The position numbers and the translations under genes are program-made. Shown here one piece after another: positions 3 through 31,070 of a stretch of DNA of 61,159 bases (position 1 is the first letter of the stretch; every line of letters begins with the position of its first letter). The notes below the pieces were generated by a model. The model saw nothing but the letters and a program-made list of their open reading frames with translations, was not told where the DNA came from and made no database searches. This stretch comes from Thermoplasmata archaeon (GTDB taxonomy: Archaea; Thermoplasmatota; Thermoplasmata; Halarchaeoplasmatales; Halarchaeoplasmataceae), in assembly GCA_003551065.1 (NCBI GenBank), contig PULU01000093.1, positions 1 to 61,159 on the forward strand, read 5' to 3'.

Positions 3-365
3 GGTATCATCCAAGAGCCCCGATGTTTCTTCAGGAATCTATTCGTACCACCTGATTATAATCTTGTAGTATCTCTGATAGAGGTTAAGTCAAATGTTGA
101 TAGTGTAAAAAAGTATATCTCCAAAGACGAACACGTCCCAAGGGCTGTTGAGACTAGTACTGAAAGGTACAATTTTTTATTGTTCTCAGCCTTCCAAAAC
201 ATCGAAGATTTCTTCGAGTGGGGTGAGAGGTTGAATTTTAACTTTCCTGGAAGTATCGGTGCGATCTCGAATACTATCTTGTCATCAAAGATGATACATA
301 CTATCAAACCTCACAAGGTCTCTTTAGGTCTTATCGAGAGGCAGTTGTGGGAGATTGAACATTGA
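3..365 (+). CDS. 3' end of an unidentified protein-coding gene that runs off the left edge of the window
   Basis: Frame 3 is open from the first base to the TGA at 363-365 (about 120 codons), which is long for an AT-rich sequence. The track only reports the part after an internal TTG (180..365). No family was recognised. Confidence 0.35.
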   Translation, partial: GIIQEPRCFFRNLFVPPDYNLVVSLIEVKSNVDSVKKYISKDEHVPRAVETSTERYNFLLFSAFQNIEDFFEWGERLNFNFPGSIGAISNTILSSKMIHTIKPHKVSLGLIERQLWEIEH

Positions 366-588: not shown

Positions 589-1875
589 ATGGCAGAAGAA
601 GGGTTTAATGCGTTTAAGATGGCTCAGAAGCAGTTCGATAGGATAGCAGATAAACTTGACCTAGATGAAGGTACAAGAAAAATCCTAAGAAAACCGATAC
701 GAGAATATCACTTCAATATACCTGTGAAGATGGACGATGGCTCAACCCAGGTCTTTGAGGCTTTCAGGATCCAGCATAACGATGCTAGAGGACCTTGCAA
801 AGGAGGTATCAGGTTCCATCCGCAAGAGACAGTTGATACTGTAAGGGCTTTAGCGATGTGGATGACTTGGAAAACAGCAGTAGCAAATATCCCATTGGGT
901 GGAGGAAAAGGAGGAGTCATATGTGATCCTCACGATCTATCAGATAGAGAGCAGGAACGGATATGCAGAGGCTATGTAAGAGAAATATATGACGAATTAG
1001 GACCTGATAAAGACATACCCGCTCCGGACGTTATGACAACCGCACAGCATATGTTGTGGATGATGGATGAATATGAGAAGATCAACGGATCCAAGAATCC
1101 AGGTGTGATAACTGGTAAACCAGTTGATATGGGAGGTTCATTGGGACGTACAGAAGCTACCGGTTATGGTGTGATATACGTTCTGAGAGAAGTTCTAAAA
1201 GAGATGGATCTTGATATAAACGAGATGACAGCTTCAGTTCAAGGTTTCGGAAATGTTGCCCAGCATGCTGTTGAGTTGTTCATTGAATATGGCGGTACAG
1301 TTGTGTCTGTATCCTGCTGGGACCAAGAAGACAGCTGTGCTTACAGTTACTTTAGGGAAGATGGGATCGACCTGGAGGAACTCAGAGGGATAACTGACAG
1401 GTTCGGTTCTATAGATAAAAAGAAAGCTAAAGAGAAAGGGTACACCAGGAGATCTGGTGAAGATTGGATAAAGGACGATGTAGATATACTGATCCCAGCG
1501 GCTTTAGAGAACGCTATCACCGAGGATAACGTAGAAGATATCAAAGATAGTGTGAGGTTGATAATCTCTGGAGCGAACGGACCTATAACCCCCGAAGCTG
1601 ATGAAATGCTAGAAGAAATGGACATAGTTGTCATACCAGACTTCCTAGCCAATGCCGGCGGTGTTACTTGCAGTTACTTCGAACAGGTACAGAGCAATCA
1701 GAACTACTATTGGCCCAAGGAGGAAGTTCTGGGAAAATTGGATAACATGATGACCGATGCCTTCTACGAGGTATGGGAACTCGCTAAACGGAAAAATATC
1801 CGTGTTCGTGATGCAGCTTATATGATATCTATAGATAGAGTAGCTGAAGCCTGCAAAAAACGCGGTTGGGTATAG
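589..1875 (+). CDS. gdhA: Glutamate dehydrogenase
   Basis: GDH signatures are present: KGGIRFHP and the catalytic Lys loop PLGGGKGG, plus a Rossmann region (VQGFGNVAQH). I prefer the ATG at 589, preceded by AGGTG at 576-580, over the TTG at 547. Confidence 0.93.
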   Translation: MAEEGFNAFKMAQKQFDRIADKLDLDEGTRKILRKPIREYHFNIPVKMDDGSTQVFEAFRIQHNDARGPCKGGIRFHPQETVDTVRALAMWMTWKTAVANIPLGGGKGGVICDPHDLSDREQERICRGYVREIYDELGPDKDIPAPDVMTTAQHMLWMMDEYEKINGSKNPGVITGKPVDMGGSLGRTEATGYGVIYVLREVLKEMDLDINEMTASVQGFGNVAQHAVELFIEYGGTVVSVSCWDQEDSCAYSYFREDGIDLEELRGITDRFGSIDKKKAKEKGYTRRSGEDWIKDDVDILIPAALENAITEDNVEDIKDSVRLIISGANGPITPEADEMLEEMDIVVIPDFLANAGGVTCSYFEQVQSNQNYYWPKEEVLGKLDNMMTDAFYEVWELAKRKNIRVRDAAYMISIDRVAEACKKRGWV

Positions 1876-1884
1876 TGGAGATAG

Positions 1885-4872
1885 ATGAAGAATCGAGAAG
1901 ACGAGATAAAAAAAACTATCGAGGAGATAACCGGGATAACCCCAAAAACAGAGAAGGAAGATAAGGGAGATGAATACCTCAGGGCATCCTATGTAGAAAA
2001 TGTCCTGATCATTTCCCCTCCCTTCGATTATTTTTTATTCGAGGAAGAAGGTAGGTTAGAAGAACTTTTTGACGAAGTATTTGGAGGTAGGGAATTTGGT
2101 CCGATACCAAATGTGATCCATGTGGAAAATGGTGGTGAAGGAAAGGATGTCTTGGATGACACCAAGATAGACCTGATAATAGTTTTCAGTGAACCCATGG
2201 ATATGGAACTGTTGAAATTCTCTGGTCTGGTTAAGGATGATCATCCTGATATCCCCATAGTTTTGATCAGCAACGATACAGTAGAGATCAAAGAGATACT
2301 AAGAGAAGACAGTAAAGATACCATCGAAGAAGCTTTCACATGGTACGGGGACGGTAGGATAATCCTCAGTATTATCCAATATATCGAAGATAAGAAAAAT
2401 CTTAAAAACGAGGTACTTTCGAAAGATGGAAAGGCTATACTGCTGATAGAGGATTCTATCCAGTTCTATTCAAAATATCTGCCGTTGATTTATGAAGAGA
2501 TATGGCATTACACCGACTCTATAATCGAAGACGACCTACCAAAAAAGATCAAAAGTAAAAGATACTGGAGTAAACCTTTCCTTCTATTCGCTTCCGATAT
2601 ACGGAAGGGGAAGGAACTCTATAATAGATATCACGATAATTTGATATGTATAGTGACTGATAATCACTGTGGTTCAGACAACGAAGAACATCCGGGACTC
2701 GATTTTGCTCTACAAGTCGAGAAAGAGAGAGAAGACCTTTCTATTTTAGTTCAATCCTCGGAACCTATAGAAGGGTTCCCTGAAGATAGCGATATAGAAT
2801 TCATTTTAAAGGACTCTCCTGTACTCACTTCCAAGATCGGTGAGTTCGTTAGGAAAAATATAGGACCGTTAGAGCTAATTTTTAAAAATGAAGTCGGAAC
2901 TGAATTGGCGGTCGTAGATGGTCTTAAAGGACTCGAAGAAGCTTTATGGAATATCGATAACGAGATTTTAGAAAAGTATCTCATGGAAAGTCAGATAACT
3001 ACCTGGTTAAGAGCTAGATCTGAGTATGTCTTAGCTGAGGAGATAGAAAACCTCTCAAAGCGGGAAGAGAAAGAAGAGTTGAAGAGCCAGCTTATCAACA
3101 TCTTAGAAGAGCACAGATATAGATATCATCAAGGCACGATAACGAATTTCGAGAGAAGGAGGGAGAATCACTATAGCAAGATCAGCAGGATCGGAAAAGG
3201 TGCATTAGGTGGGAAAGCAAGAGGATTAGCTTTCATGGCTAAGATACTGTCAAAATATGTAACTGACGAGATGTTCGATGGCTTACGTATCACAGTCCCT
3301 AGGAGTGTAGTACTATCAACAGAGGTTTATGACAAATTTCTAGATAAAAATGATCTTATTAGTGAAAATATCGAGCAGACTTCTGATCAACGGATATCAT
3401 CTAAGTTCATAGATGGTTCTTTGCCAGCGACTGTTTTAGGTGATCTTAGATCCTTTGTTAGGAACACGAAAACACCTCTTATCGTTCGTTCATCTGGTTT
3501 ATTGGAAGATTCATTGATGCAGCCCTTTGCCGGTATCTATTCTTCAGTATTACTGCCTAATGACTCATGGGAAACGGATCTTAGGTTCAAAGAAGTCTGT
3601 AACGCCATCAAACATGTCTATGCATCGTCATTCTTCGAGAAAGCAAGGACTTACCTGATGTCAACACCTAAGAAATTAGGGGATGAAAAGATGGCGGTGA
3701 TGATCCAGGAAGTGGTCGGAAAAAAACATGGTAAATATTTTTATCCCGATATATCTGGTGTGGCTAAATCGTACAATCATTATCCATCCGGTCCATGCAG
3801 TTCTGAAGATGGTATAGTTTATCTTGCCCTAGGTCTTGGGAAAGCAGTGGTTGACGGGAGCAACACTTTCTGTTTCTGCCCAGAACATCCCAAAATTCCT
3901 TTATCGGGTACCCCAAAAGATTTTATGAAGTATTCTCAGACCGATTTGTATGCAGTTGATCTTGAATCCGTTTACAAACGGATAAAAAAGGATGAAGAAA
4001 CATCACTCGTTAAATTGAAACTAGACGAAGTAAAGAAACATGGTGTACTCGATAAGACTGTATCTACTTTTTCCCCGAGGAACGATAGGTTATATCCAGG
4101 TACTGCCCATGAGGGTCCCATGGTGGTCGATTTTGGTCCAATAGTGAAATATAATTCAGTACCTTTAGCAAAGGCTTTGAAGATGCTGTTAAAGGTAAGT
4201 AGGATAGCATTAGGTTATCCCGTAGAGATAGAATTTGCAGTCAATCTAAACAAAGGAAAAAATGAACATGCGGAACTAGTCATACTCCAGATTAGGAGTA
4301 TGATCACAACCGAGAGCTTTTTAGATATGGATATCGATGAATATAAGGAGGATGAACTAATCTGTAAAAGTCAGAACGCCATCGGATATGGAGTGATGGG
4401 GGATATAAAAGACATCATTTATATCAAATATGACGAGTTCGACTTCAAGGATTCTCAGAGCGTTGTTGAAAAACTTAGAAGATTAAACAAACGTTTGATG
4501 GATGATGATAGACCTTATATTTTGGTCGGTCCAGGGAGATGGGGATCTTCTGATGAATGGTTGGGTATCCCGGTCTTATGGAGTGATATTGCTGGGGCAA
4601 GGGTCATAGTAGAAACCACGACTGCAGGTAGGAACATCGATCCTTCCCAAGGTTCTCATTTCTTCCATGACATGATCTCTTCCCAAGCTGGATATATGAT
4701 AGCGGATTCAGAAAATATTGATTGGGACTGGTTGAGATCTCAACAGATAGTAGAAAAACTAGAAGATATTGTCCATGTCAGAACCAAAGAACCATTAGAA
4801 ATCATGATAGATGGAAAAGAGGGTAAAGGTGTCATCAAAAAGTCTAAAAAGAATGTTGAAGAAGATAATTGA
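1885..4872 (+). CDS. Receiver-like domains fused to a PPDK_N-type ATP-grasp domain; dikinase-like protein without a recognisable phosphohistidine domain
   Basis: The ATG lies 9 nt after the gdhA stop, with GGAG upstream. The N-terminal half has two CheY-like repeats; the second has LLIEDS ... IVTD ... ILVQSS. The C-terminal half has GGKARGLAFM, IVRSSGLLEDS and MAVMIQEVVGK, typical of the PEP-synthase/PPDK nucleotide-binding domain. The protein ends with a GPGRWGS...GSHFFHD module. I saw no TSHAA-type swivel motif. Confidence 0.8.
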   Translation: MKNREDEIKKTIEEITGITPKTEKEDKGDEYLRASYVENVLIISPPFDYFLFEEEGRLEELFDEVFGGREFGPIPNVIHVENGGEGKDVLDDTKIDLIIVFSEPMDMELLKFSGLVKDDHPDIPIVLISNDTVEIKEILREDSKDTIEEAFTWYGDGRIILSIIQYIEDKKNLKNEVLSKDGKAILLIEDSIQFYSKYLPLIYEEIWHYTDSIIEDDLPKKIKSKRYWSKPFLLFASDIRKGKELYNRYHDNLICIVTDNHCGSDNEEHPGLDFALQVEKEREDLSILVQSSEPIEGFPEDSDIEFILKDSPVLTSKIGEFVRKNIGPLELIFKNEVGTELAVVDGLKGLEEALWNIDNEILEKYLMESQITTWLRARSEYVLAEEIENLSKREEKEELKSQLINILEEHRYRYHQGTITNFERRRENHYSKISRIGKGALGGKARGLAFMAKILSKYVTDEMFDGLRITVPRSVVLSTEVYDKFLDKNDLISENIEQTSDQRISSKFIDGSLPATVLGDLRSFVRNTKTPLIVRSSGLLEDSLMQPFAGIYSSVLLPNDSWETDLRFKEVCNAIKHVYASSFFEKARTYLMSTPKKLGDEKMAVMIQEVVGKKHGKYFYPDISGVAKSYNHYPSGPCSSEDGIVYLALGLGKAVVDGSNTFCFCPEHPKIPLSGTPKDFMKYSQTDLYAVDLESVYKRIKKDEETSLVKLKLDEVKKHGVLDKTVSTFSPRNDRLYPGTAHEGPMVVDFGPIVKYNSVPLAKALKMLLKVSRIALGYPVEIEFAVNLNKGKNEHAELVILQIRSMITTESFLDMDIDEYKEDELICKSQNAIGYGVMGDIKDIIYIKYDEFDFKDSQSVVEKLRRLNKRLMDDDRPYILVGPGRWGSSDEWLGIPVLWSDIAGARVIVETTTAGRNIDPSQGSHFFHDMISSQAGYMIADSENIDWDWLRSQQIVEKLEDIVHVRTKEPLEIMIDGKEGKGVIKKSKKNVEEDN

Positions 4873-4932
4873 TGCAGTCTATAGAACAAAACTATTTAGC
4901 GAGGTTAGTCATAGATATATAAGGTAAATATC

Positions 4933-7900
4933 ATGGACGATGATGTCAACGTCGAAAATAGAATTGAAAAGGAAATCGAGGATAAGATAACCCCTAGGAA
5001 AGAATTGGATGAACTTCAAGAGCGTGTGAAAGAACTCAACTGTATTTATGGTATATCCGAGATAGTTAACGATTACAATTTATCATTAGGAGAGGCTTTA
5101 CAAGAGATAGTGGAACTACTTCCCCCATCTTGGCAGTATGAGGATATCGCTTGTGCTAGGATAAAATTGAACGGTGAAGAGTACAAGACTGATGATTTTC
5201 GAGAAACTGAGTGGAAACAGCAGAGTATAATAGAAGTCGGAGGAGAGTTGAAAGGGTCTTTAGAAGTATGCTATCTAGAGGAAAAACCCGAGATGGATGA
5301 AGGACCGTTTCTCATCGAAGAACGCAGACTTCTAAACACAGTTTCTGATCTTTTAGGAAGATTCGTAGAAGAAAGGAGGGTGAAGAAACAGATCTCAGAT
5401 GAAAAACAGGATTGGGAAGTTATCATAGACCTGTTGATGAGGACCGATCCCAAGACCCTTCTAAGGATGACCCGAAAGATGGTGTATTACCTTTACAGAC
5501 ATGAGAACGAACAGATCTCGATGCTTTTGAATGATGTATGTCCCATCGAACCCGATTCTGACACACCGAAATGGTGTGGGATAAATATGCCAAATCCCAA
5601 ACAGGATCTAGAGTCATTGAAAGAGATCCAGAGAGGTGTGTTTCAGATTGCAAAAGATAGTTTAGAACCGGAAGAGATATCTGAACTCTTTCATAGATGG
5701 TTGAAGGAAGATAAAGCTAGACCGTTACTGCTTGCATCTCAAAGGAAGGGTATACCTTTGGTTGAGATAACCGATGAGCTCAATCGTTTTTTCGATAAAG
5801 CCGATGCAAATACAGCTCTAGCTCCCGAGGATAAGATGGCTATCAGAACAGCCCTTATCCAAAGGTTTTTCACCGATAGATTGGAGTTCATCAACATAGC
5901 AAAAAATTACATCCAATTGGATGATTTTGTCTCTTTATTGAAACGGCTCATCGGCCCTGCACAGGGTGCTGGTAAAGTAGGTGGGAAAACCTCTGGGGCA
6001 TATCTCGCCTATAAGATCCTTCAAAGGGAGAAGGATAGACACACTGATCTCAAAGACATCAAGTTCCCCAAAAGTTGGTATCTTACGTCGGATTCTATGT
6101 TAGATCTGATACATTATAACGACTTGGATGAAGTTATACACATAAAATATCTCGATCCAGATAGGATAAGACAAGAACAGCCATTCCTCGAACAGATAAT
6201 GAAGAATGCTGTATTCACTTCAGAGATCGTTGAGGGATTTAAAAAGATCCTCCGGGATATAGACGATAATCCGATAATCGTAAGATCCTCTAGTCTCCTT
6301 GAAGATAACTTCGGAGCAGCCTTTTCAGGCAAATACAAGAGTCTCTTTTTATCAAACAAAGGGTCTGAAGAGGAAAGGTTGAATGCTCTCATGGAAGCAG
6401 TCGCTGAGGTGTATGCATCTACTTTTGGTCCGGATCCCATTGAGTATCGTCGAGAAAAAGGGATGTTAGATTTCAGTGAAGAGATGGGGATACTTATTCA
6501 AGAGGTCGTGGGTAAAAGGGTAGGTCCATATTATGTTCCAGCCTATGCTGGTGTCGCTTTCAGTAAGAACGAGTTCAGATGGTCACCTCGTATCAATAGA
6601 GATGATGGCATAATCAGATTAGTACCAGGATTGGGAACTAGAGCAGTTGATAGAGTGGGTAATGACTATCCTATCTTGGTTTCACCTAAAAGGCCTGAAC
6701 TCAGGGTGAATACACTGGTTGAAGAGAGGATAAAGTACTCTCCACGATACATGGATGTCATAAACCTTGAAACTGGAGCTATAGAAACAGTTGATGCCAT
6801 AGAAATATACAAGGAATATGGAGAGAAATTTCCGTTCCTTAACAAGATCGTGTCGGTGTATGAGGATGGTGAACTGAGGAAACCGAAAAGCTTTTTATTC
6901 GATCCTGAAGAAGAGGATATGATAGTAACCTTCGATAAGCTGTTCGAAGAGACTGACTTCTTACTTTTGATGTGTAAGATAATGGATATACTCGAAAGTA
7001 AGATAGAGACACCTGTCGATGTTGAATTCGCTCATGATGGAGATAATCTTTACATCCTTCAGTGTCGTCCTCAAAGCCAGACTCAACAGATAAAACGTAA
7101 ACCTATCCCCATGGACATAAAGAACAAGGATAAACTGTTTTCCAGTAAAAAATTCGTCACCACCGGTCACCTAGAGAACATTGAATATATAGTGTATGTT
7201 TCTCCAGAAGGATACGCCAGTCTCGATAGCGAACGTAAGATGAGAAAAGTAGCTGAGATAGTTGGAGAATTGAACAACTATCTCCCTGAGAAAAGGTTCA
7301 TTTTGATGGGGCCCGGGAGATGGGGAAGCCGGGGAGATATCACTCTTGGGGTACCGGTGAAGTACAGGGATATCAACAATACTTCATTGATAGTTGAGAT
7401 AGCTAAAGAAAAAGGTGGATATTTACCAGAATTATCATTTGGAACTCACTTTTTCCAGGATTTAGTTGAGGCCGATATAAAATATCTACCTCTTTATCCA
7501 GATGAGTCCGGAAACATCTTCAACGAAGAATTGTTGTACAGGTCCGAGAACCGACTGACGGAAATACTTCCTGGGCAGGAGGATTTCGAAGAAGTTATAC
7601 GGTTGGTCCGGGTCAGTGATATCAGTTCAGGTGGTTCCTTAGATGTGGTCATGGACGGCGAAGCCAACGAGGCTCTAGCTTATCTTAGGTCTCCAGACCA
7701 TTGGGAATGGAGGATGAATAAAGTGGAAACCATGGCAGATGAGTTGGACCCTGATATATACGGGATTAAAGGCCTATATATCGTTGGGAGCACAAAAGAA
7801 GGTACAGCTTGTTCTAGAAGCGACATAGATCTTATAGTCCATTATACAGGAGAGCAAGAAAAGAAGGAAAAGTTGGAGAACTGGTTCTATGAATGGGATA

Positions 7901-8070
7901 AAAAATTAGTTGAAGAAAATAAGAATAGGACGGGTATTGAAGTGGATAAAATATTAGACATCCATTTCATAACTGATGAGGATATAAAAGAAAATACCTC
8001 ATGGGCTTCACATATAAATTCTAGATATAGATCAGCCCGGGAGATCCCCTTGGATGGTAGTGATTCATGA
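4933..8070 (+). CDS. Coiled-coil/GAF-like sensor + PPDK_N-type ATP-grasp domain + C-terminal minimal nucleotidyltransferase domain
   Basis: This is a paralog of the preceding ORF: GGKTSGAYLA, IIVRSSSLLEDN, GILIQEVVGK, GPGRWGS...GTHFFQD. The N-terminus has KELNCIYGISE ... EGPFLIEERRLLNTV, a pattern common in sensor proteins. The C-terminus has a Pol-beta-type NTase motif (GSTKEGTACSRSDIDLIVHY). Confidence 0.8.
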   Translation: MDDDVNVENRIEKEIEDKITPRKELDELQERVKELNCIYGISEIVNDYNLSLGEALQEIVELLPPSWQYEDIACARIKLNGEEYKTDDFRETEWKQQSIIEVGGELKGSLEVCYLEEKPEMDEGPFLIEERRLLNTVSDLLGRFVEERRVKKQISDEKQDWEVIIDLLMRTDPKTLLRMTRKMVYYLYRHENEQISMLLNDVCPIEPDSDTPKWCGINMPNPKQDLESLKEIQRGVFQIAKDSLEPEEISELFHRWLKEDKARPLLLASQRKGIPLVEITDELNRFFDKADANTALAPEDKMAIRTALIQRFFTDRLEFINIAKNYIQLDDFVSLLKRLIGPAQGAGKVGGKTSGAYLAYKILQREKDRHTDLKDIKFPKSWYLTSDSMLDLIHYNDLDEVIHIKYLDPDRIRQEQPFLEQIMKNAVFTSEIVEGFKKILRDIDDNPIIVRSSSLLEDNFGAAFSGKYKSLFLSNKGSEEERLNALMEAVAEVYASTFGPDPIEYRREKGMLDFSEEMGILIQEVVGKRVGPYYVPAYAGVAFSKNEFRWSPRINRDDGIIRLVPGLGTRAVDRVGNDYPILVSPKRPELRVNTLVEERIKYSPRYMDVINLETGAIETVDAIEIYKEYGEKFPFLNKIVSVYEDGELRKPKSFLFDPEEEDMIVTFDKLFEETDFLLLMCKIMDILESKIETPVDVEFAHDGDNLYILQCRPQSQTQQIKRKPIPMDIKNKDKLFSSKKFVTTGHLENIEYIVYVSPEGYASLDSERKMRKVAEIVGELNNYLPEKRFILMGPGRWGSRGDITLGVPVKYRDINNTSLIVEIAKEKGGYLPELSFGTHFFQDLVEADIKYLPLYPDESGNIFNEELLYRSENRLTEILPGQEDFEEVIRLVRVSDISSGGSLDVVMDGEANEALAYLRSPDHWEWRMNKVETMADELDPDIYGIKGLYIVGSTKEGTACSRSDIDLIVHYTGEQEKKEKLENWFYEWDKKLVEENKNRTGIEVDKILDIHFITDEDIKENTSWASHINSRYRSAREIPLDGSDS

Positions 8071-8949
8071 ATCGACTACAGTTCTACGTGCATCCTTTAA
8101 GTTTTCTGTATCGAATATGACCAATGCAAGCCCATCTCCGGATGTTACGCCTGTAAAACTATAAGTATCGCCGATGCTGCATCTCCAATTTCCCGTCAAC
8201 TCGACTGTTTCATGAACATGACCATGCAGTGTGAGAAATGGCTGCTCTTTTTTTATAAAATTCCTGATAGATATACTTCCTACATGAACATCCAAGGGTA
8301 CATGGTCCACTTCCTTCCCGTCTAGATCAGCTCTATCCAGGTCGGTATCATATGGAGGTGCGTGGAAAAGATATATAGTATTTTTCGGATCTGATGCTCG
8401 TTTTATATCCTCTATATCTTTTTCGATCGTAGAGTAAGTGATCTCATTTTTATTTATCTTTACAGTTCTAGTTCCTTCCTCAGGAGCAACGACTCCTACA
8501 TCAATAAATCTTGAAACATCATATTTTTCCCAATCTTTAAGATGAAAAGGTGTGGGAGGTATAAAGCTGTACCCACATATATCATATCCCTTAAAGTCTA
8601 CACATCTCTGGTTGACATAATCTATGTGTCCTTTTTCGTCAAACCCATTTAATATATCTTCGAATATCCTTGGATCATCGTTACCCATGATCACAAAACA
8701 TCTCAACTCCTTATCTGACTCTTTTCGGATATTCTGGATGGGTTTGATGAGATTGTTTGATAAAAAATCCTTCACTCTTTTTTTATCTCTAATGAAGCTC
8801 GGTAGTAGATCACCACCAAGGAAAAGAGCATCGGGATCTATCTTATCTAGAACTTCTATCAAAAGTTTATATCTTTTTTCTTTACCATGTAGGTCTGAGG
8901 TAAATATACACTTCAAGTTCTCACCGTTCTTTGGCCACGGATACTGCAT
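8065..8949 (-). CDS. Calcineurin-like metallophosphoesterase
   Basis: The ordered motifs are FTSDLHG, GGDL, GNDD, FHAPP and GHVHE. The stop codon overlaps the stop of the convergent upstream gene within TCATGA. Confidence 0.8.
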   Translation of the reverse strand: MQYPWPKNGENLKCIFTSDLHGKEKRYKLLIEVLDKIDPDALFLGGDLLPSFIRDKKRVKDFLSNNLIKPIQNIRKESDKELRCFVIMGNDDPRIFEDILNGFDEKGHIDYVNQRCVDFKGYDICGYSFIPPTPFHLKDWEKYDVSRFIDVGVVAPEEGTRTVKINKNEITYSTIEKDIEDIKRASDPKNTIYLFHAPPYDTDLDRADLDGKEVDHVPLDVHVGSISIRNFIKKEQPFLTLHGHVHETVELTGNWRCSIGDTYSFTGVTSGDGLALVIFDTENLKDARRTVVDS

Positions 8950-9979
8950 ATTCTACATAGATATCAACGATATCTAAGAGATGTGAGAGTTCTATGTATT
9001 CATCAGGCTGGTGTGCTGAGTCAACTTCGCCTGGACCAAATATGAATGTGTTTTTGTTGTTCTCGACAAACCTGACCATCTCAGTCCCGTAGGGAACCGA
9101 CCATAACTCCGTGTCAGCTATCTCCAGTATCTTTTTTACACATTCCATGTTCTCATCTACTTTGACAGCGTCTAGATACTGGATAACATCCAGGTCGAAT
9201 TCTTCTTCGATGTCACCGAATAGATGCTCTTCGAGTTCTGACCTGGAAAAGCTCGGTGGGAACCTGACATCGACTTCCACTCTGCATCTTTTCGGAATCA
9301 CATTCGTAGCACTGCCTGATTCTATTACGTTTACGGAACAGGTCATCTCATCTTTAGTGGCTGGAACATGACCTTTAGAATCTAGATTCTTGATTATAGG
9401 AACCATCTTCATGATAGCGTTTTCCCCTTTTTCAGGCATACTAGCGTGGGCGTTGATCCCTTTGGTTTGTAATTCGAACTGGTACACTCCCTTTTCTTGT
9501 GTTACCACTAGTTTTGCAGTGGGTTCTGCTACGATTACAACTGGAGCTTCCGTTATTTCCGGTTCAGAAGCGGCTTCTAATGCACCGTTCATGGATATCT
9601 CTTCATCGGTGGTGAATATCAATGAGAAAGGTACGTCTTTTTCGATTAGTTTTTTAGCTGCAGCTATAACCGCTACGCAGGGTCCTTTCATATCTAAAGC
9701 ACCTCTGCCGAATATCTTTCCGTTTTCGATCTCACCCTCTTCATGTTCCCATCCATCTCCTACCGGAACGGTATCTAGATGACCAGAGAAGCAGACACCG
9801 CCCTTTCTGTGAGATGCTATTATGACCGGATTGAATTCATCGCCTTTCAATACACGACTTTTTAAACCTATATCATCCAGTAAAGAGGTGGTGAACTCGA
9901 TGATCTCATCCATATCACCCTTACTCTCACTGTCGATATCTATCATCTTCCTTAGGTTTTCAACTATAAATTCTTCCAT
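8921..9979 (-). CDS. M20-family metallopeptidase/deacylase (ArgE/DapE-like)
   Basis: Motifs GHLDTVPVGDGW, GRGALDMKG and FTTDEE fit the M20 metal-binding and catalytic pattern. Confidence 0.78.
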   Translation of the reverse strand: MEEFIVENLRKMIDIDSESKGDMDEIIEFTTSLLDDIGLKSRVLKGDEFNPVIIASHRKGGVCFSGHLDTVPVGDGWEHEEGEIENGKIFGRGALDMKGPCVAVIAAAKKLIEKDVPFSLIFTTDEEISMNGALEAASEPEITEAPVVIVAEPTAKLVVTQEKGVYQFELQTKGINAHASMPEKGENAIMKMVPIIKNLDSKGHVPATKDEMTCSVNVIESGSATNVIPKRCRVEVDVRFPPSFSRSELEEHLFGDIEEEFDLDVIQYLDAVKVDENMECVKKILEIADTELWSVPYGTEMVRFVENNKNTFIFGPGEVDSAHQPDEYIELSHLLDIVDIYVEYAVSVAKER

Positions 9980-12697: not shown

Positions 12698-13390
12698 ATG
12701 AGTGTCTCATTATATCTTTTCGAGAGTGGTAATATCTCCGGAAAGATCTCCGAAGAGAATAAAGTACGTGTGATGATACTCCCTATAATCGCCATGCTGG
12801 TGATAACGATGATCGTGGCCGGGTATCGGGATGAGAGAGAGCCGATCGAGGTGGATGAAAATCCAGGTGAACTTACCATTGAGTACCGAACAATTGAGGA
12901 TCAGGTTGGAGAGCCTGATGTCAAAGCAATCGGCTCTACGGTTGTGAATAATGATAGTCATTTGGAATTGGAAACAAATGTTACAAATATTTCTCCTGGT
13001 GGTGAATTTCAACGTATCTTTGTGCGGCTGAACGCAGAAGGAGCCTTCGAAAAGGAGTTACAAATAGACGCTTTCAAGTTTACAGCCTCAGAAACTGAGG
13101 AAAATGAACCACCTTTTAATGGAATAGATTTTGAAAGTAGTAAATCTAGAATCGAAGGAGGGGAGATCTGGCCTACTGAAAGACAACGCACCGGTGTTTT
13201 AACTTCTTCTCCTGAACATTACGCTTACGAGGGATACGATCTAGATTCAAATGATTTTACGGCGAATAGCATTTTGATGTGGTCGATTCCAACAGAAAAT
13301 GTCGGTGAAGAGTTCAGTTTAGAGATACAAGCTGTAGTTCATGGATTGTCCGAAGATGTTACCGCAACTGTTCAGGTCGATATTAGATGA
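12698..13390 (+). CDS. Hypothetical membrane-anchored, highly acidic protein
   Basis: The ATG sits directly after a TA-repeat TATA-like tract, so the transcript may be leaderless. One N-terminal TM (ILPIIAMLVITMIVAGY) is followed by an acidic domain. No family was recognised. Confidence 0.55.
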   Translation: MSVSLYLFESGNISGKISEENKVRVMILPIIAMLVITMIVAGYRDEREPIEVDENPGELTIEYRTIEDQVGEPDVKAIGSTVVNNDSHLELETNVTNISPGGEFQRIFVRLNAEGAFEKELQIDAFKFTASETEENEPPFNGIDFESSKSRIEGGEIWPTERQRTGVLTSSPEHYAYEGYDLDSNDFTANSILMWSIPTENVGEEFSLEIQAVVHGLSEDVTATVQVDIR

Positions 13391-14870
13391 GGTTTATGAA
13401 TATGGGATTAAAAACGCATTTACATGGATAGTTGCGTTCTTGCTCGTATTTGTTGTCTTTTCGGTAGTTTTTACAGATACAGTTGTGGCCAACGATGGAT
13501 TTGAGGATGAATTCGAATCTGACAATGGGAAAGCCCTTTATCTCCAAGATGGTCGTACCGAACCATATTATTATAACTATACCGATGTGGTGGTTGAAGA
13601 AGCTTTATACATACCTTATCCTGATGTAGGCAATTGGTTTTCCTATGATACGGAAACTACTCTTGATGTTCTAGCTACAACCGTGGACGGCGGAGGGGAG
13701 TATACTAGAGTATTTCTACATGTATCAGCTGCAGGAGGTTATTCGTATAATGAAACTGAAAGTGTTGAGCATCCCCATGATGATTTATCGCCTCCAGGAA
13801 TGGGACATATAGGTAACGCAGGACAAGTGATAGAGGCAGAAATAACAGATTATGATGGAAACCATATCCCATATCTTGATATAGAAAGATCAAAGAATAG
13901 TGGAACAACTAGCATTACAGATGGGGATGAAGGAGGGGACGGAGAAACCAGTGAAACCCAAAAGTTAGCTTTGCAAGGCGCTTTATTCGCTGCTCAAATA
14001 GGAGCTACTGCCGTCGATGTAAAAACTTTCGGGGCTATAAGTGCAGTCTCATTTGCATATACTCTCGCTACAAGGGGAAGCGATGATGAACCGAATCCAT
14101 TTCCAGAAAATAAAGATTATGACTTGGGAGAAGATGCCAATGTTAGACAAGTTTGGAAACACGATCCCGAAATGTCGGAGTGGAATGATACCTCCGGTCG
14201 AATGGAAAACCCTTTGGAAGATGTACATGGCACGTCAACAGTCTTATATTTAAGTCTAGATAACGACGACCTTCATGAAAGTGCAATTCTTGAAATATCT
14301 GCTCGTAATCTATTAGGTATTTCAGGTTATGATGACGACGAGTATTTTGAAAGCAGTATAACTGACGGTGCCGAAGCCACGATAGAGATTCCGATCAGGA
14401 AAGCCCGACCGGAACTATCCCTCGACACGGACAAAGATACATATTACAAAAGTGATTACATCACATCAGATGACGGACCTTATATAGTAAGTCCGAAATT
14501 TGATATCAGTTTAGATAACCCTGCAGGCGATAACACTCCAAAATACGATATTACCATGGATATAAAATTTGATGGTAGTAGTTATGAAACATTGACCTAC
14601 TTTTTTTACAGAGATATCGATGATGATATAAGCCAATATATCACTATCGAGGTACTAGATGGATACGACGGTTCCGTATCTATAAAATTCACCGTTGAGA
14701 CCCGTTATGAGAGATACGGGGGATGGATAGAGACATTTGAAATATCAGAATCATTTAATGTAGTGGAGGATGGCCGTGATGATAGCGATGACGGTGGCAG
14801 CGGAGGTGGTACTCCACCACCTGGAGGAGTGGTATCTACAGGGAATGAAACCCCCCTAGAAGGAGGTTAG
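13341..14870 (+). CDS. Hypothetical membrane-anchored, highly acidic secreted protein (start uncertain)
   Basis: Long open frame with an N-terminal TM (WIVAFLLVFVVFSVVF) and a Gly/Pro-rich tail. The annotated ATG overlaps the upstream gene by 50 nt. An alternative start needs a frame change at an A5 run (see findings). Confidence 0.6.
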   Translation: MDCPKMLPQLFRSILDEVYEYGIKNAFTWIVAFLLVFVVFSVVFTDTVVANDGFEDEFESDNGKALYLQDGRTEPYYYNYTDVVVEEALYIPYPDVGNWFSYDTETTLDVLATTVDGGGEYTRVFLHVSAAGGYSYNETESVEHPHDDLSPPGMGHIGNAGQVIEAEITDYDGNHIPYLDIERSKNSGTTSITDGDEGGDGETSETQKLALQGALFAAQIGATAVDVKTFGAISAVSFAYTLATRGSDDEPNPFPENKDYDLGEDANVRQVWKHDPEMSEWNDTSGRMENPLEDVHGTSTVLYLSLDNDDLHESAILEISARNLLGISGYDDDEYFESSITDGAEATIEIPIRKARPELSLDTDKDTYYKSDYITSDDGPYIVSPKFDISLDNPAGDNTPKYDITMDIKFDGSSYETLTYFFYRDIDDDISQYITIEVLDGYDGSVSIKFTVETRYERYGGWIETFEISESFNVVEDGRDDSDDGGSGGGTPPPGGVVSTGNETPLEGG

Positions 14871-17364: not shown

Positions 17365-17841
17365 CTACAGTATCTCAGCTACCTCTTCACATATGTCTTC
17401 GAGCAGTTTCTCATCCTCATCGGTGAACGGAGATTCTTCGTGTGAATCTATATCGAGTTCACCGACGACCTCTCCGTTTTTGAATATCGGAACCACTAAC
17501 TCAGATTTAACGTTAACACTGCAGGACAAATAATTGTCTTCTTTGGTGACATCCTGCACCCTGAACGTTTCTTCCATATCAGCGGCCTGACCGCATATCC
17601 CTTCGCCGAAACCTATGTCAGTATGTTCGGTAGGTTCACCTACGTATGGTCCAAGGACCAACCGCTCCTTTTTGACAAGGTAGAATCCGACCCAATCGTA
17701 ATGCTCGACATCATCCGCCAATAATTTACATATTTTTTTCAGCTTTCCATCTTTATCGATATCCTTCTTCAAAATTCCTTTAACTTTTTCAAATATATCC
17801 TCACTATCCATCTTTTTCACCTCTTCTCCATCTTGAGCCAT
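17365..17841 (-). CDS. GAF-domain protein (free methionine-R-sulfoxide reductase-like)
   Basis: The pattern WVGFYL...LVLGPYVG...GEGICGQAA...SELVVPI...GELDIDS is typical of the YebR/fRMsr GAF family. Confidence 0.75.
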   Translation of the reverse strand: MAQDGEEVKKMDSEDIFEKVKGILKKDIDKDGKLKKICKLLADDVEHYDWVGFYLVKKERLVLGPYVGEPTEHTDIGFGEGICGQAADMEETFRVQDVTKEDNYLSCSVNVKSELVVPIFKNGEVVGELDIDSHEESPFTDEDEKLLEDICEEVAEIL

Positions 17842-25567: not shown

Positions 25568-26569
25568 TCATAATATCACTCCCTCTATCCAAACGAGGAG
25601 TGTTCCTAAAAGTCCGATGAGTGTCATGGGTACCCAGTAGAAGTAACTGGCTTTATCGATCTGGAATCTTGCTACGGCTACCCTGACTACGGATACGGAA
25701 ACGAATATCACTGCGAGCAATTTCAATAAGAAGAAAGCCACGTTGCCTACCAGGTCACCTATAATTATTCCGAATATCTCAGGTCCTCCTATGGTCACCC
25801 AATTAGTCAGATTTTGGGGGAAGAACAATGCTATCATCAAAGTACCAACGACCACCATCTTGACGGCCTCGGCTAGATAGAACAATCCCAAGTTCCTTCC
25901 AGAGTATTCTACAAATAATCCTTCGGCAAGCTCTGTTTCAGCTTCGGCTTGATCGAAGGGAACTCTTGACAATTCACCCGGTAAGACGGTGAACAATGCC
26001 AAAGCAACGAGGATCAATCCTAGTGTTCCCACGGGACCCACCAGCCACCAAACTGGCGTTGAGGATATCACTCCCAGGGAGAACGTTTCAAATCTCCAGG
26101 CGATGGTGACTGCAGCTATGGCTAGAGGGAATTCGTAACTCATCATCAAGACTAGCTCACGCTGGGCTCCCACTGTAGCATAAGGCGAGCCGGATGAAAG
26201 TCCACCCACGGCCATGGCAACTGCGGGTATGGCTAGAAGATAAAGGATGAGGATCAAGTCTCCGAAACCTTCCATGATAGGCCCTAACGGCCCTATAGGG
26301 AGGTAAGCCAGGGCTATCAATGGAGCTATCAAAGCTATGACCGGTGCTGCGTTGAATAACCACGGTACAGCTCCGTCGGGGATGATGGTCTCTTTCATGA
26401 ATAGCTTTCTGATATCCCTGAAGGGTTGACGCCAAGGGGGCCCTATACGAGACTGCATCATAGCTGTTATCTTACGATCAAAACCCTTGTAAAGCAGTCC
26501 TAAAAATATACCGATAAAAGGGATAATCAACACGTAAAATAATGATATGATCAGTTCTTCAAGATTCAT
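25568..26569 (-). CDS. mbhM: Mbh subunit M, NuoH/HycD-like membrane subunit
   Basis: Polytopic protein with NuoH-like motifs (RIGPPWRQPFRD, PFDQAEAETEL). Confidence 0.85.
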   Translation of the reverse strand: MNLEELIISLFYVLIIPFIGIFLGLLYKGFDRKITAMMQSRIGPPWRQPFRDIRKLFMKETIIPDGAVPWLFNAAPVIALIAPLIALAYLPIGPLGPIMEGFGDLILILYLLAIPAVAMAVGGLSSGSPYATVGAQRELVLMMSYEFPLAIAAVTIAWRFETFSLGVISSTPVWWLVGPVGTLGLILVALALFTVLPGELSRVPFDQAEAETELAEGLFVEYSGRNLGLFYLAEAVKMVVVGTLMIALFFPQNLTNWVTIGGPEIFGIIIGDLVGNVAFFLLKLLAVIFVSVSVVRVAVARFQIDKASYFYWVPMTLIGLLGTLLVWIEGVIL

Positions 26570-27840
26570 AGTTTATCACCCAAGATCTCTCTGGTTTTCC
26601 TTACACTCATCTCATGGAGTTCTTCGTGATCGTATGAGGTCTGTTCACCGGTATTGATATCTACTATCTCGGCTCTATCCATGCAACCTATACAGGGATC
26701 GATACACGCTGCTATTATCGGTATATCTGCGATCTGCTCGCCTAAAAACATGGGTGCATAAGTAGCCAAGTTGTTATAAGTCGAAGCCCTGACCTTCCAA
26801 TTATCTAGTTCTTCATGACCCTCTTTCAATCTTACATAATGTAGGGCCTCACCACGTGGAGCTTCGATACGACCGATACCTTCCCCATCGGCCTTTTTCA
26901 ATTTGTTCAATAATGCAGCCTTTTTTGGCTCGCTGTCGATATCCTCATCAGGCATCTTTTGCACACACTGTCGTATAAGATCTATTGATTGAAGGATCTC
27001 TTTCAACCTTACCAATGTTTTTGAAAATACATCACCGGTGTTTTCATATCCGTATCTAGAAGGAATAACATAATCTAGCTCTAGATCTCCATATGCCGCA
27101 TATGGTTGATCTATACGAACATCTTTCTTGACCCCGGATGCACGGACAGTAGGCCCAACACCACATAATTCAAGGGCTTCCTTTTCAGTCAATATACCTA
27201 TATTTTTGGTCCTCAGCCTTATGCTTGGGTCTCCCAAGAATATATCTTCGAGTTTACCATAAAGCTTTTCATAATACTCGAGAGTGTTTTGGATCTTGGG
27301 GTACATCTTCGGTGAGAAATCTCTACGATACATCTTTTTAGGGATATCCCTACGGACACCTCCTACGGTCCACATAGAATAGTTGACTCTATTGCCAGAT
27401 ATCTCTTCTAATAGGTCCATCACTTTCTCCCTGATCTTCCATGTGAAGTGGAGATGTGTGTCAAAACCGATCTCGTGGGCCGCGACTCCTGCCCAGAGAA
27501 CGTGAGAATGGATCCGCTCTAATTCACACATTATAGTCCTTATGTATCTAGCCCGATTTGTAGGTTCGATCCCAGCAGCATGTTCAACTGCCGTAGTGTA
27601 CATGTGCTGGTGAACTATAGAACAGATACCACATATACGTTCAGCTAAAGGTATCACTTTAAGGGGATTTCGATGCATACCCATGAATTCGATACCTCTG
27701 TGGTTCATACCCGGGTGCGGATCTGCATCCACTATGGTCTCTCCATCGAGTTTAAATTTTACCATAAAAGGCTCTTTTAATGCTGGATGTATAGGACCTA
27801 TAGGTACCTCATAAGTCGCGTCTTTACTCATCACTATCAC
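26566..27840 (-). CDS. mbhL: Mbh subunit L, [NiFe] hydrogenase large subunit (NuoD-like, group 4)
   Basis: All four Ni-Fe cysteine ligands are present (RICGICSIVH near the N-terminus, DPCIGCMDR near the C-terminus). A 35-aa tail follows the Arg. Confidence 0.9.
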   Translation of the reverse strand: MIVMSKDATYEVPIGPIHPALKEPFMVKFKLDGETIVDADPHPGMNHRGIEFMGMHRNPLKVIPLAERICGICSIVHQHMYTTAVEHAAGIEPTNRARYIRTIMCELERIHSHVLWAGVAAHEIGFDTHLHFTWKIREKVMDLLEEISGNRVNYSMWTVGGVRRDIPKKMYRRDFSPKMYPKIQNTLEYYEKLYGKLEDIFLGDPSIRLRTKNIGILTEKEALELCGVGPTVRASGVKKDVRIDQPYAAYGDLELDYVIPSRYGYENTGDVFSKTLVRLKEILQSIDLIRQCVQKMPDEDIDSEPKKAALLNKLKKADGEGIGRIEAPRGEALHYVRLKEGHEELDNWKVRASTYNNLATYAPMFLGEQIADIPIIAACIDPCIGCMDRAEIVDINTGEQTSYDHEELHEMSVRKTREILGDKL

Positions 27841-28417
27841 CTCCGCTCCTAGGATTTTTTACTATAGGTGGATCATTTGCCTCTTCCTCGTCATGGACAT
27901 ATCTTGATCGATCTTCCATACCCTTATCGTCCCAGCGCCACGGATATTTGTCTTCTGGAAATACTTCGTCCAGCCAAAGTCTCCTCGAGTCGGGTATATC
28001 TATTACTTCTACTCCGAGGAATTCCTGTTTTTCTCTTTCTGTGGTTATAGCCCCGGGTATGATATCTGTGATCGTGGATATCGTGGGATCCTCTTTAGGA
28101 AGATGGACTTTGAGGTTTATACTTATTTCATCTCCAGGATATCCATAATTTACAGCAAAATGATAGATCAGCTCGATATCATCACCGATATCGGAACCAG
28201 AAGTCACGGATAGATGAGGGACCTGTAATTCTGAGATCGTCTTGACTGCCTTCCTAAATTCATCTCTCTTTATTTTTAACCATATAAGTTTCATAGGAGT
28301 ATTATTAAGGCCTTTCTCGATCTCTTCTGTGTATATCTCGTCAACCCCATCCCCTATCTTCTGCTCCAGATATTCTTTCATCTCATCTAGTTCCAAAGGG
28401 AGTTGTATGTTATTCAT
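27824..28417 (-). CDS. mbhK: Mbh subunit K (NuoC-like)
   Basis: Assigned by its position between the NuoB-like and NuoD-like genes, its size, and NuoC-like sequence (ELIYHF...). Confidence 0.75.
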   Translation of the reverse strand: MNNIQLPLELDEMKEYLEQKIGDGVDEIYTEEIEKGLNNTPMKLIWLKIKRDEFRKAVKTISELQVPHLSVTSGSDIGDDIELIYHFAVNYGYPGDEISINLKVHLPKEDPTISTITDIIPGAITTEREKQEFLGVEVIDIPDSRRLWLDEVFPEDKYPWRWDDKGMEDRSRYVHDEEEANDPPIVKNPRSGGDSDE

Positions 28418-28866
28418 TTGTCATCACCTCTGATTTTCTCTAAATATAACCATGCCTCTTTGACTCCGTTGATAATGTTTTCTGGTCTTACAGGACATCC
28501 ATTAACATATAGTACATGTGCATCATCAGGGAGAAGTGAATCTATCGGCCCCTCTATCGCATAACTGTCGTAATAAACACCGGTCGTGCTTCCACAGTTC
28601 CCTATGATCATGACAACTTTTGGATCGGGTGTTTGTTCATAAACTCTTAATATCCGATCCTTCATCTTTTTTGTAACGGGACCTGTGAAAAGTAGAACAT
28701 CAGCATGTCTTGGTGACCCGACTAGTTTTATACCGAATCTTTCAGCATCGTACCTCGGTGTTATAGCTGCAACTATCTCTATATCACATGCGTTACAGGA
28801 ACCACTGTTCATGTGAAAGACCCAAAGCGCTTTATCGAACGTTTTTGATAACTTCATATTTAACAC
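28414..28866 (-). CDS. mbhJ: Mbh subunit J, hydrogenase small subunit (NuoB-like)
   Basis: The [4Fe-4S] ligand pattern is present: GSCNACDIE ... GNCG ... GCPVRPE. Confidence 0.88.
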   Translation of the reverse strand: MLNMKLSKTFDKALWVFHMNSGSCNACDIEIVAAITPRYDAERFGIKLVGSPRHADVLLFTGPVTKKMKDRILRVYEQTPDPKVVMIIGNCGSTTGVYYDSYAIEGPIDSLLPDDAHVLYVNGCPVRPENIINGVKEAWLYLEKIRGDDK

Positions 28867-28870
28867 CTGA

Positions 28871-29146
28871 TTATATGAGCAAATACAAGAACACCAGCAC
28901 GAAAGCCAGTGTTACAACGAACCAGTACACGTAATCATTAACTATACCCGTATGTCCTTCTACAAGAGGATCCAAATATTTTCTCAGAGCATGTGTGAAT
29001 CCCCAGTAGAGATTATCTCCACCTACGTGGATATCTCTTGGATCCTTAGAAGGTCTGTTACCTGATATGAACGGATCTCCTTTTAATCTTGTTTTCTTGT
29101 AACTAGATTCCCCCATCTGATAGAATAGATAAGCTACTAAAGCCAT
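28871..29146 (-). CDS. mbhI: Mbh subunit I, small membrane subunit
   Basis: Position matches P. furiosus mbhI (between H and J). It has a TM at each end. Confidence 0.65.
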   Translation of the reverse strand: MALVAYLFYQMGESSYKKTRLKGDPFISGNRPSKDPRDIHVGGDNLYWGFTHALRKYLDPLVEGHTGIVNDYVYWFVVTLAFVLVFLYLLI

Positions 29147-29205
29147 AAGCAGACCTACGATTATGAAGAGTATAGGACTCCATGCATCCCTTAGAACTAT
29201 ATCGA

Positions 29206-30723: not shown

Positions 30724-31070
30724 TCCCTGCACCTCCTTGCATCGTCAGAATTTATGCTGCCATAATGTTTTTTCAACATGATGACGAATGATAACATCAG
30801 TGCAGTGGTAGCAACACCGATGACGATGCTGGTTAGAGTGAGTGCATGAGGTGTAGGTAAAACCATATCAGTAGCGGGTGCGCTGGTCCAGATCGGTGCG
30901 ACATATCCCTCTCTATATGCAAGGGAAACCAAGAAAAGATTAGCACCGTTCTGGATGATCGCTATCCCCATGATCATCTTTATCAGATTCTTTTTGAACA
31001 ATACTACATATAAACCCATTATCACGAGTGTTACGACCATGATAAGAGGGAAAAAGTTGAACCAGTTCAT
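30720..31070 (-). CDS. mbhG: Mbh subunit G (MrpC/NuoK-like)
   Basis: Three-TM protein of 116 aa in the expected operon position. Confidence 0.75.
   Translation of the reverse strand: MNWFNFFPLIMVVTLVIMGLYVVLFKKNLIKMIMGIAIIQNGANLFLVSLAYREGYVAPIWTSAPATDMVLPTPHALTLTSIVIGVATTALMLSFVIMLKKHYGSINSDDARRCRE

Follow-up and report, generated by a model that had tools for sequence, protein, structure and literature searches.

The analysed window, a 61,159-nt stretch of contig PULU01000093.1 (GenBank assembly GCA_003551065.1) from a Thermoplasmata archaeon, carries near its start two large adjacent open reading frames (ORFs) on the forward strand, ORF-A (1885..4872, 995 amino acids (aa)) and ORF-B (4933..8070, 1045 aa), separated by 60 nt. 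Their products (hereafter, A and B) each contain an ATP-grasp domain of the kind found at the N-terminus of phosphoenolpyruvate (PEP) synthase and pyruvate, phosphate dikinase (PPDK), followed by a family-specific domain (hereafter, the C-domain), and the genes lie between those for a glutamate dehydrogenase (GDH) and a calcineurin-type metallophosphoesterase (MPE). A preliminary description, made from the sequence alone, had singled out this tandem as sensor-fused paralogs, and its account of the two ORFs was accurate. BLASTP aligned A with B at 28% identity over 536 aa (E 2e-43), a match that spans PPDK_N and the C-domain beyond it and thus the central and C-terminal parts said to be paralogous. 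The domain order is pseudo-receiver, receiver, linker, PPDK_N ATP-grasp and C-domain in A, and GAF-like sensor, all-helical domain, PPDK_N ATP-grasp, C-domain and MNT-type nucleotidyltransferase (NTase) in B. What the preliminary description did not include is the genomic context, a cluster with GDH and MPE that is found in both Archaea and Bacteria.

The ATP-grasp domain occupies residues 440-810 of A (nt 3202..4314, + strand; Pfam PPDK_N, E 2e-37) and residues 348-729 of B (nt 5974..7119, +; E 6e-53). The motifs by which it had been recognized are present in the translations, i.e., GGKARGLAFM, IVRSSGLLEDS and MIQEVVGK in A, and GGKTSGAYLA, IVRSSSLLEDN and LIQEVVGK in B. Both domains keep the GGK Lys, the RSS Arg, the ED pair, the IQE adenine strand and the Mg2+ ligands of E-F-A...L-Q-x-R. 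Family alignments were made for A (48 homologs) and for B (47 homologs, column identity 72%), and the nucleotide- and Mg2+-binding residues are invariant in both (A: K444, R535, E541/D542, Q608, E781/E783, Q802 and R804; B: K352, R451, E457/D458, Q523, D696/E698, Q710 and R712). The AlphaFold model of B (mean pLDDT, the model's confidence score, 76.7) was compared with the PDB by Foldseek, and the top matches of its ATP-grasp domain were PEP synthase (2ols), rifampin phosphotransferase (RPH; 5hv1/5hv3) and HpeI (9goj), with PPDK (1kbl) also matched. By sequence, a PDB search gave marginal matches for B, confined to the ATP-grasp domain, and no homolog for A.

The two proteins share this N-terminal ATP-grasp with PEP synthase and PPDK, with all ATP- and Mg2+-binding residues kept, but carry a new alpha/beta domain, sensors and, in B, an NTase instead of the phosphohistidine swivel and the PEP/pyruvate-binding TIM barrel. 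No Pfam match to the swivel (PF00391) or the barrel (PF02896) was obtained for A or B at E<=1, the precomputed Pfam lists of the homologs hold not even a faint swivel match, and NCBIfam, the PDB sequence search, Foldseek and hhalign agree with the absence of both domains that had been noted on reading the proteins. Past the C-domain, neither protein has residues left to house a barrel of ~300 aa. The NCBIfam equivalogs for PEP synthase, PPDK, PigC/RedH and RPH scored 10-62 bits against cutoffs of 500-1700, with the ATP-grasp alone aligned; the best scores were 55.8 bits for A (cutoff 883) and 62.5 bits for B (cutoff 598). A split-dikinase partner encoded nearby was also sought and rejected, as a motif regex for GG.TSH-type ORFs found none in the window or in 84 related loci. 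Judged by their sequences, A and B cannot be PEP synthase or PPDK. Their relatives are nevertheless named "pyruvate, phosphate dikinase", "phosphoenolpyruvate synthase" or "PEP/pyruvate-binding domain-containing protein" in databases, the mislabelling that had been foreseen for automated annotation.

The C-domain is a region of ~190 aa, alpha/beta in structure, that directly follows the ATP-grasp in both proteins (A residues 815-990, nt 4327..4854, +; B residues 730-920, nt 7120..7692, +) and has no Pfam model. It is marked by GPGRWGS (A 882-888, B 793-799) and by SQGSHFFHD in A (921-929) or SFGTHFFQD in B (835-843). Across a profile of 230 A- and B-type sequences from Bacteria and Archaea, GPGRWG and SxG(S/T)HFF are invariant, and with them a His at position 925 of A (codon nt 4657-4659) and 839 of B (codon nt 7447-7449). 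An exhaustive HMMER search of 1.84 billion representative proteins with a C-domain profile recovered 1925, and PPDK_N immediately precedes the C-domain in every full-length match checked. A scan for the C-domain motifs in one genome per GTDB species yielded at least 598 confirmed matches among at least 600.

Modelled alone, B 728-880 forms a small parallel alpha/beta domain (pLDDT 83.8) in which a low-confidence (flexible) loop leads into a helix, with the invariant His at the helix N-terminus; this placement suggests the usual setting of a phospho-His. Since the only acceptor of a dikinase-type ATP-grasp known to us is a histidine, the C-domain His could be a non-homologous phospho-carrier. 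The earlier statement that the proteins lack the rest of the dikinase machinery is thus correct for the swivel and the barrel, and may be too strong for the phospho-acceptor. We also considered the C-domain as a divergent swivel, on account of its strand-helix order and of a likeness, by eye, of "G(T/S)H..." to "GG.TSHAA". This was rejected, as hhalign of the 230-sequence profile against the swivels of CsPPDK, EcPpsA and EcPtsI gave a probability of 0.2%, and Pfam, the PDB profile search and Foldseek were negative. Foldseek alignments of full-length B with PPDK run over 600-735 columns, versus ~400 for targets aligned over the ATP-grasp only, which is only a hint of a swivel-like C-domain in the model.

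The input regions of the two proteins differ, as had been proposed. A begins with a pseudo-receiver (residues 38-170, nt 1996..2394, +) that hhalign matched to CheY 31-89 with a probability of 48%; the position of CheY D57 is F or N across the family, so the phospho-acceptor Asp is missing. The receiver that follows (residues 183-320, nt 2431..2844, +) has E189/D190, the acceptor D259, S291/S292 and K309, of which D259, S291, S292 and K309 are invariant and E189/D190 at least 90% conserved among the A homologs; hhalign placed D259 on D57 and S291 on T87 of CheY. The Pfam comparison that the preliminary description had proposed gave PF01326 (PPDK_N) in both proteins and PF01909 (NTP_transf_2) in B, without PF00391 or PF02896, and departed from expectation at the receiver alone: PF00072 (Response_reg) was matched by 32 of the 48 A homologs but not by A of the window itself. 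The bacterial A proteins are usually ~570 aa long and consist of ATP-grasp and C-domain with no sensor domain, and some long A proteins carry one to four copies of the GAF-like module of B at the N-terminus.

In B, the GAF-like sensor (residues 27-150, nt 5011..5382, +) was assigned from its fold only, an alpha-beta(4-5)-alpha arrangement in the AlphaFold model (pLDDT about 80-89). Foldseek matched it to the NifA GAF domain 8jrc with a probability of 1.0 but an E value of 0.12, and also to 8w26; none of the 47 B homologs matched Pfam GAF. Next to it lies an all-helical domain (residues 160-345, nt 5410..5967, +) with the motifs WCGINMPNP (214-222) and RFFTDR (311-316), no family match, and numerous residues that are polar and invariant in the B alignment, making it a candidate substrate- or partner-binding domain. 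Pfam gave no match over the N-terminal 345 residues or the C-domain of B in any homolog. The window also encodes a stand-alone GAF protein of 158 aa (17365-17841, -; Pfam E 3e-12), beside a small carboxymuconolactone-decarboxylase-like ORF, which has no sequence kinship with the GAF-like region of B.

The extra NTase attributed to B is confirmed as a domain of the MNT/Pol-beta type at residues 923-1040 (nt 7699..8052, +). Its catalytic signature, G952-S953...D964-x-D966 and D1009, is intact, and all five residues are invariant. NTP_transf_2 was matched at residues 943-990 with E 7e-6 and 26.8 bits, above the gathering cutoff of 21, and likewise in 47/47 homologs. By Foldseek the domain resembles the MNT antitoxins 8xeo/8xeh, as well as 2rff.

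The first gene of the cluster (590..1875, +) encodes a hexameric ELFV-type GDH (Pfam ELFV_dehydrog_N E 1e-56, ELFV_dehydrog E 2e-71; NCBIfam GdhA_Arch 497 bits). The ORF finder placed its start at TTG 547, and ATG 590, with GGTGG ahead of it and a TATA-like element at ~536-545, is the likely start. ORF-A begins 9 nt past the GDH stop codon and has GGAG ahead of its own start. On the other side, the MPE gene (8065..8949, -) is convergent with ORF-B, the stop regions overlapping by 6 nt, and its product shows the motifs DLHG, GGDL, GNDD, HAPP and GHVH. PF00149 (Metallophos) matches the MPE orthologs at the related loci L001 and L004; the MPE of the window misses the Pfam threshold of E 0.001 and has weak NCBIfam matches to LpxH/phosphodiesterase. 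An ArgE/DapE-type deacylase gene of the M20 family (8921-9979, -) lies on the same strand as the MPE gene, shares 29 nt with its start and is kept in the closest relative, L005, only.

At the edge of the window, a 3'-partial gene (3..362, +) is homologous to a helix-turn-helix-type protein of ~348 aa found upstream of Thermoplasmatota GDH. It clusters with L001 4463-5497 and with ORFs of L003, L006, L007, L008 and L010, and the L001 homolog has faint HTH_11/MarR matches. The gene, a loose member of the cluster, may encode its transcription regulator.

To place these genes in context, neighborhoods were profiled at the 80 best-scoring loci, which are not a random draw and whose kinship is uncorrected in all counts that follow. 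A and B recur together in archaeal and bacterial genomes, bearing out their expected conservation as a pair. Besides Thermoplasmatota, more than ten bacterial phyla have the cluster GDH-(A)-B-MPE, which takes two forms, GDH-B and GDH-A-B-MPE. On three distant Thermoplasmatota contigs the order GDH-A-B is kept, with MPE in two of the three. The 80 loci are mostly bacterial, among others from Acidobacteriota, Ignavibacteriota, Aminicenantes, Calditrichota, Myxococcota, Planctomycetota, Cloacimonadota, Bacteroidota and Bacillota/Syntrophomonadaceae, and include a cultured carrier, Oligosphaera ethanolica DSM 24202 (locus L020). At an Ignavibacteriota locus from a metagenome-assembled genome (L018 5836-9008), B is split into three ORFs, probably through assembly frameshifts or as a pseudogene.

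Among the 54 loci with enough flank, 47 have a GDH ortholog (58-77% identity) within 4.5 kb upstream, as do 45 of the 48 with an NTase-bearing B, and the spacing is often 1-120 nt to B or 9 nt to A. An MPE ortholog within 2.5 kb downstream of B is present at 38 of 59 loci with an NTase-bearing B and at 0 of 10 with an NTase-less B. It is likewise present at 27 of 33 loci with A versus 1 of 13 without A (Fisher p 5e-6, kinship uncorrected). Fusions of A and B into one protein of ~1520-1650 aa were found in several lineages (P0241, P0242, P0243 and L040 4101-9005). Candidate fusions of GDH with A or B were rejected, as the long proteins P0310, P0384 and P0335 proved to have extra GAF-like copies and no GDH.

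Not far from the main cluster, a second A-like paralog, 32-38% identical to A and containing a receiver, adjoins a second type of GDH (31-41% identical to that of the window) at L001 14087-18457, L008 9967-14260, L012 9893-12721, L071 9902-14353 and L078 41-2490; the L001 copy has faint DUF5752 and Response_reg matches. ATP-grasp/C-domain proteins thus pair with GDH more than once per genome. A GDH modification site was also sought by comparing cluster-linked with other GDHs; these belong to different subfamilies with ~90 discriminating positions, and the comparison was uninformative. Clustering of the neighboring ORFs revealed GltD-like proteins at 11 loci and NuoF-like proteins at 7, and no other widely recurring family; one apparent neighbor cluster was discarded, as it had arisen from spurious antisense ORFs of GC-rich DNA. 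The GltD/SudA-like (Fer4_20 + Pyr_redox_2) and NuoF/NuoE-like genes lie downstream, e.g., at L004 14086-18389 and L001 18545-20756, and also at L008, L009, L010, L012, L016 and L075. They encode NAD(P)H:ferredoxin-type oxidoreductases and may reflect the redox context of GDH.

The conserved catalytic residues point to a putative phospho- or nucleotidyl-transfer activity of A and B. We tentatively favor a reading in which they would be the two ATP-grasp subunits of a sensor-gated phospho/nucleotidyl relay controlling GDH. We lean to it because the catalytic residues are intact in all three enzyme types, because the coupling of ATP-grasp to C-domain is obligate and the synteny with GDH strict, and because A-B fusions and heavy sensor decoration occur. 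In such a relay, the ATP-grasp would move a phosphoryl or pyrophosphoryl group from ATP to the C-domain His (A His925, B His839), which would substitute for the swivel. The sensors would gate this step, through D259 phosphorylation in A and a ligand bound by the GAF-like domain of B. The phosphoryl group and/or a nucleoside monophosphate, the latter from the B NTase, would then be put on a protein target, most likely the co-transcribed GDH or else a partner subunit, and MPE would take the mark off. The fusions, together with the B sensor module on long A proteins, suggest that A and B interact, and the co-occurrence of MPE with A and with NTase-bearing B suggests the write/erase logic.

Known systems offer partial parallels. 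MNT-type NTases (MntA/HepT) AMPylate proteins. GlnE, the glutamine synthetase (GS) adenylyltransferase, and GlnD, the PII uridylyltransferase, are sensor-coupled Pol-beta NTases that reversibly modify nitrogen-assimilation proteins. The proposed relay as a whole would be a covalent switch of the GlnE/GlnD style for GDH, assembled from dikinase parts. The analogy is functional, in that an NTase and a removal enzyme adjoin a central enzyme of nitrogen metabolism in the A/B cluster, whereas GlnE and GlnD have no ATP-grasp, target GS and PII, and are related to B only at the level of the NTase superfamily. For a dikinase that has become a regulator, the best precedent in function is VadK (Rv1127c) of Mycobacterium tuberculosis, a PPDK minus its TIM barrel that phosphorylates itself on a His and associates with metabolic enzymes (bioRxiv 10.1101/2025.10.30.685616). 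The barrel is gone in VadK as in A and B, but VadK keeps a canonical swivel (His422), has no sensor or NTase, and is linked to the methylcitrate cycle rather than to GDH.

Several points weigh against the relay. Foldseek of the isolated C-domain against the PDB gave nothing significant (best E 0.03, probability <0.3), and swivel domains of PPDK, EI or PEP synthase are absent from the 50 matches listed, although this fold test is not final, given that the model ends at B 880, before a beta-hairpin (B 902-919) possibly belonging to the domain. The C-domain profile had no match among PDB sequences or in Pfam. The carrier role proposed for the His is argued from position and invariance rather than from homology, and GPGRWG is also compatible with a GxGxxG nucleotide-binding loop, which suggests another role for the domain. 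With its many invariant polar residues, the B helical domain resembles a site for a ligand or substrate more than it does a docking surface. A small-molecule substrate made from glutamate, 2-oxoglutarate or NAD(P)H would account for the linkage to GDH just as well. The association of MPE with A was counted over loci of uncorrected kinship, and the biochemical function of both proteins is inferred from sequences and models.

The main rival, which we consider possible though unlikely, is that A and B, like RPH, PigC and the phenylphosphate, AcvAB and HpeHI synthases, form a small-molecule dikinase that phosphorylates, and through the B NTase perhaps nucleotidylates, a metabolite derived from glutamate or 2-oxoglutarate. 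The helical domain of B would then be the substrate site, and GDH would make or use the substrate. The nearest ATP-grasp structures (2ols, 5hv1/5hv3 and 9goj) agree with such a role, as do the best, weak NCBIfam matches (PEP synthase, PigC, RedH and RPH), the 185 aa of helical domain rich in invariant polar residues, and the tight operon with a metabolic enzyme, which fits a pathway. However, the short bacterial A (~570 aa) is without a candidate substrate-binding domain, the receivers, the one to four GAF-like copies and the paired phosphoesterase are more regulator-like than pathway-like, and no further pathway genes recur nearby.

The enzymes on which this rival is modelled also differ from A and B in architecture. 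RPH and PigC/RedH have kept the ATP-grasp and carry a different substrate site in place of the third domain (Foldseek of B to RPH, E 1e-10 to 1e-9). RPH, however, has a true His swivel and a rifampin-binding domain (PMC4844700), neither of which A or B has; the Foldseek alignments to RPH cover ~400 columns of ATP-grasp only, and its NCBIfam model NF041857 scored 20-33 bits against a cutoff of 999. The split dikinases, i.e., phenylphosphate synthase, AcvAB (bioRxiv 10.1101/2022.04.28.489975) and HpeHI (9goj), likewise have a PPDK_N polypeptide without a PEP/pyruvate domain, but their partner subunit bears the swivel His, and none is encoded in or near the A/B cluster.

It is improbable, in our view, that the C-domain is instead a nucleotide- or dinucleotide-binding mini-Rossmann, with A and B sensing or modifying NAD(P)(H) or adenine nucleotides and tuning coenzyme supply or GDH allosterically. 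The segment FILMGPGRWG could be read as a strand plus GxGxxG, with an invariant Glu (B E822) that closes the next parallel strand 24 residues on; generic Rossmann/flavodoxin-like matches appear weakly in Foldseek, and the GltD-like and NuoF-like NAD(P)H enzymes lie near the cluster at 11 and 7 loci. Yet the model lacks the helix after the Gly-rich loop that a Rossmann fold needs, the Foldseek matches are all non-significant, and neither the invariance of SxG(S/T)HFF nor the obligate fusion to a dikinase ATP-grasp would be explained.

We give very little credence to A and B being non-catalytic regulators, in which the ATP-grasp senses ATP/AMP and the proteins serve as scaffolds or allosteric effectors of GDH. 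The many sensor modules and the lack of an acceptor domain of recognized family would suit such a role. Pseudo-enzymes, though, usually lose catalytic residues, and here the ATP-grasp and Mg2+ residues, the GS/DxD/D triad of the NTase and the metal motifs of MPE are invariant in bacteria and archaea alike.

Two further explanations are effectively excluded. An ordinary PEP synthase or PPDK, or the ATP subunits of a split dikinase with a swivel/PEP partner nearby, would agree with the database names and with PPDK_N but not with the missing PF00391 and PF02896, the equivalog scores far below cutoff, or the absence of any recurring neighbor of the GG.TSH type. A defence or toxin-antitoxin module around the NTase is suggested by the minimal fold and GS...DxD that the B C-terminus shares with MntA, the type VII toxin-antitoxin antitoxin (8xeo, 8xeh), and by weak PADLOC matches to PDC-S09/S10, but these matches are partial (15-26 bits) and fall on generic parts of the NTase or MPE only, a HEPN toxin partner is missing, and B, an NTase fused to a 920-aa sensor/ATP-grasp protein, sits in strict cross-phylum synteny with a housekeeping GDH and is highly conserved (72% column identity), unlike defence islands.

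The window appears to derive from a Thermoplasmatota metagenome-assembled genome with kinship to "Candidatus Saliniplasma": the closest named homologs are annotated as Candidatus Saliniplasma sp. (71-84% identical), and another B homolog is 98% identical. A literature search found nothing on the A/B family or its link to GDH, and neither there nor in databases was a characterized relative found, i.e., no ortholog with an ordinary function. The ATP-grasp, receiver, NTase and phosphoesterase belong to known kinds of domain or enzyme; what appears to be undescribed is the C-domain, the way the proteins are built and the GDH-linked cluster shared by two domains of life. GDH chiefly controls the passage between the amino-acid carbon and nitrogen pools of such peptide-degrading organisms, and we know of no dedicated covalent or sensor-driven control of this kind for a prokaryotic GDH. 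A concrete, testable candidate for GDH control is a cluster that strictly accompanies GDH, combines genes for sensors, ATP-grasp, NTase and phosphoesterase, and is conserved in Bacteria and Archaea. That A, B and MPE constitute a new post-translational control of GDH in full, with a non-swivel phospho-His carrier, an NTase that writes, an MPE that erases, and two-component and GAF-like inputs, we regard as rather doubtful on present evidence. If true, it would do for GDH what the GlnE/GlnD system does for glutamine synthetase, in many bacterial phyla and in Thermoplasmatota, and the family would show a dikinase ATP-grasp working with an acceptor domain that has no sequence kinship with the swivel. 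Thousands of entries named "pyruvate, phosphate dikinase" or "PEP synthase" cannot perform those reactions, a misnaming that distorts the metabolism reconstructed for Thermoplasmatota, Acidobacteriota, Ignavibacteriota, syntrophs and further uncultured anaerobes.

Outside the cluster, ARAGORN found no tRNA gene over the whole window. Two consecutive acidic ORFs of 230 and 509 aa (12698-14870, +) begin with hydrophobic segments, and their products may be secreted or exposed at the cell surface; the 509-aa ORF, the one of the two that was scanned, had no Pfam match. Genes resembling those of complex I or membrane-bound hydrogenases (25568-30732, -; Complex1_49kDa/NiFeSe_Hases, Proton_antipo_M) suggest an energy-converting module of the Mbh/Mrp type. 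A 1751-aa ORF (49985-55240, +) matches only HHH_5 (helix-hairpin-helix) at its N-terminus and, weakly, MG2. A GvpD-like/KaiC-like P-loop ATPase (37923-39437, -; GvpD_P-loop E 4e-19, GvpD_bR2) is encoded within a low-GC region at 36-44 kb (GC 0.35-0.39), the most AT-rich part of the window, and is possibly a gas-vesicle regulatory gene or part of such a cluster.

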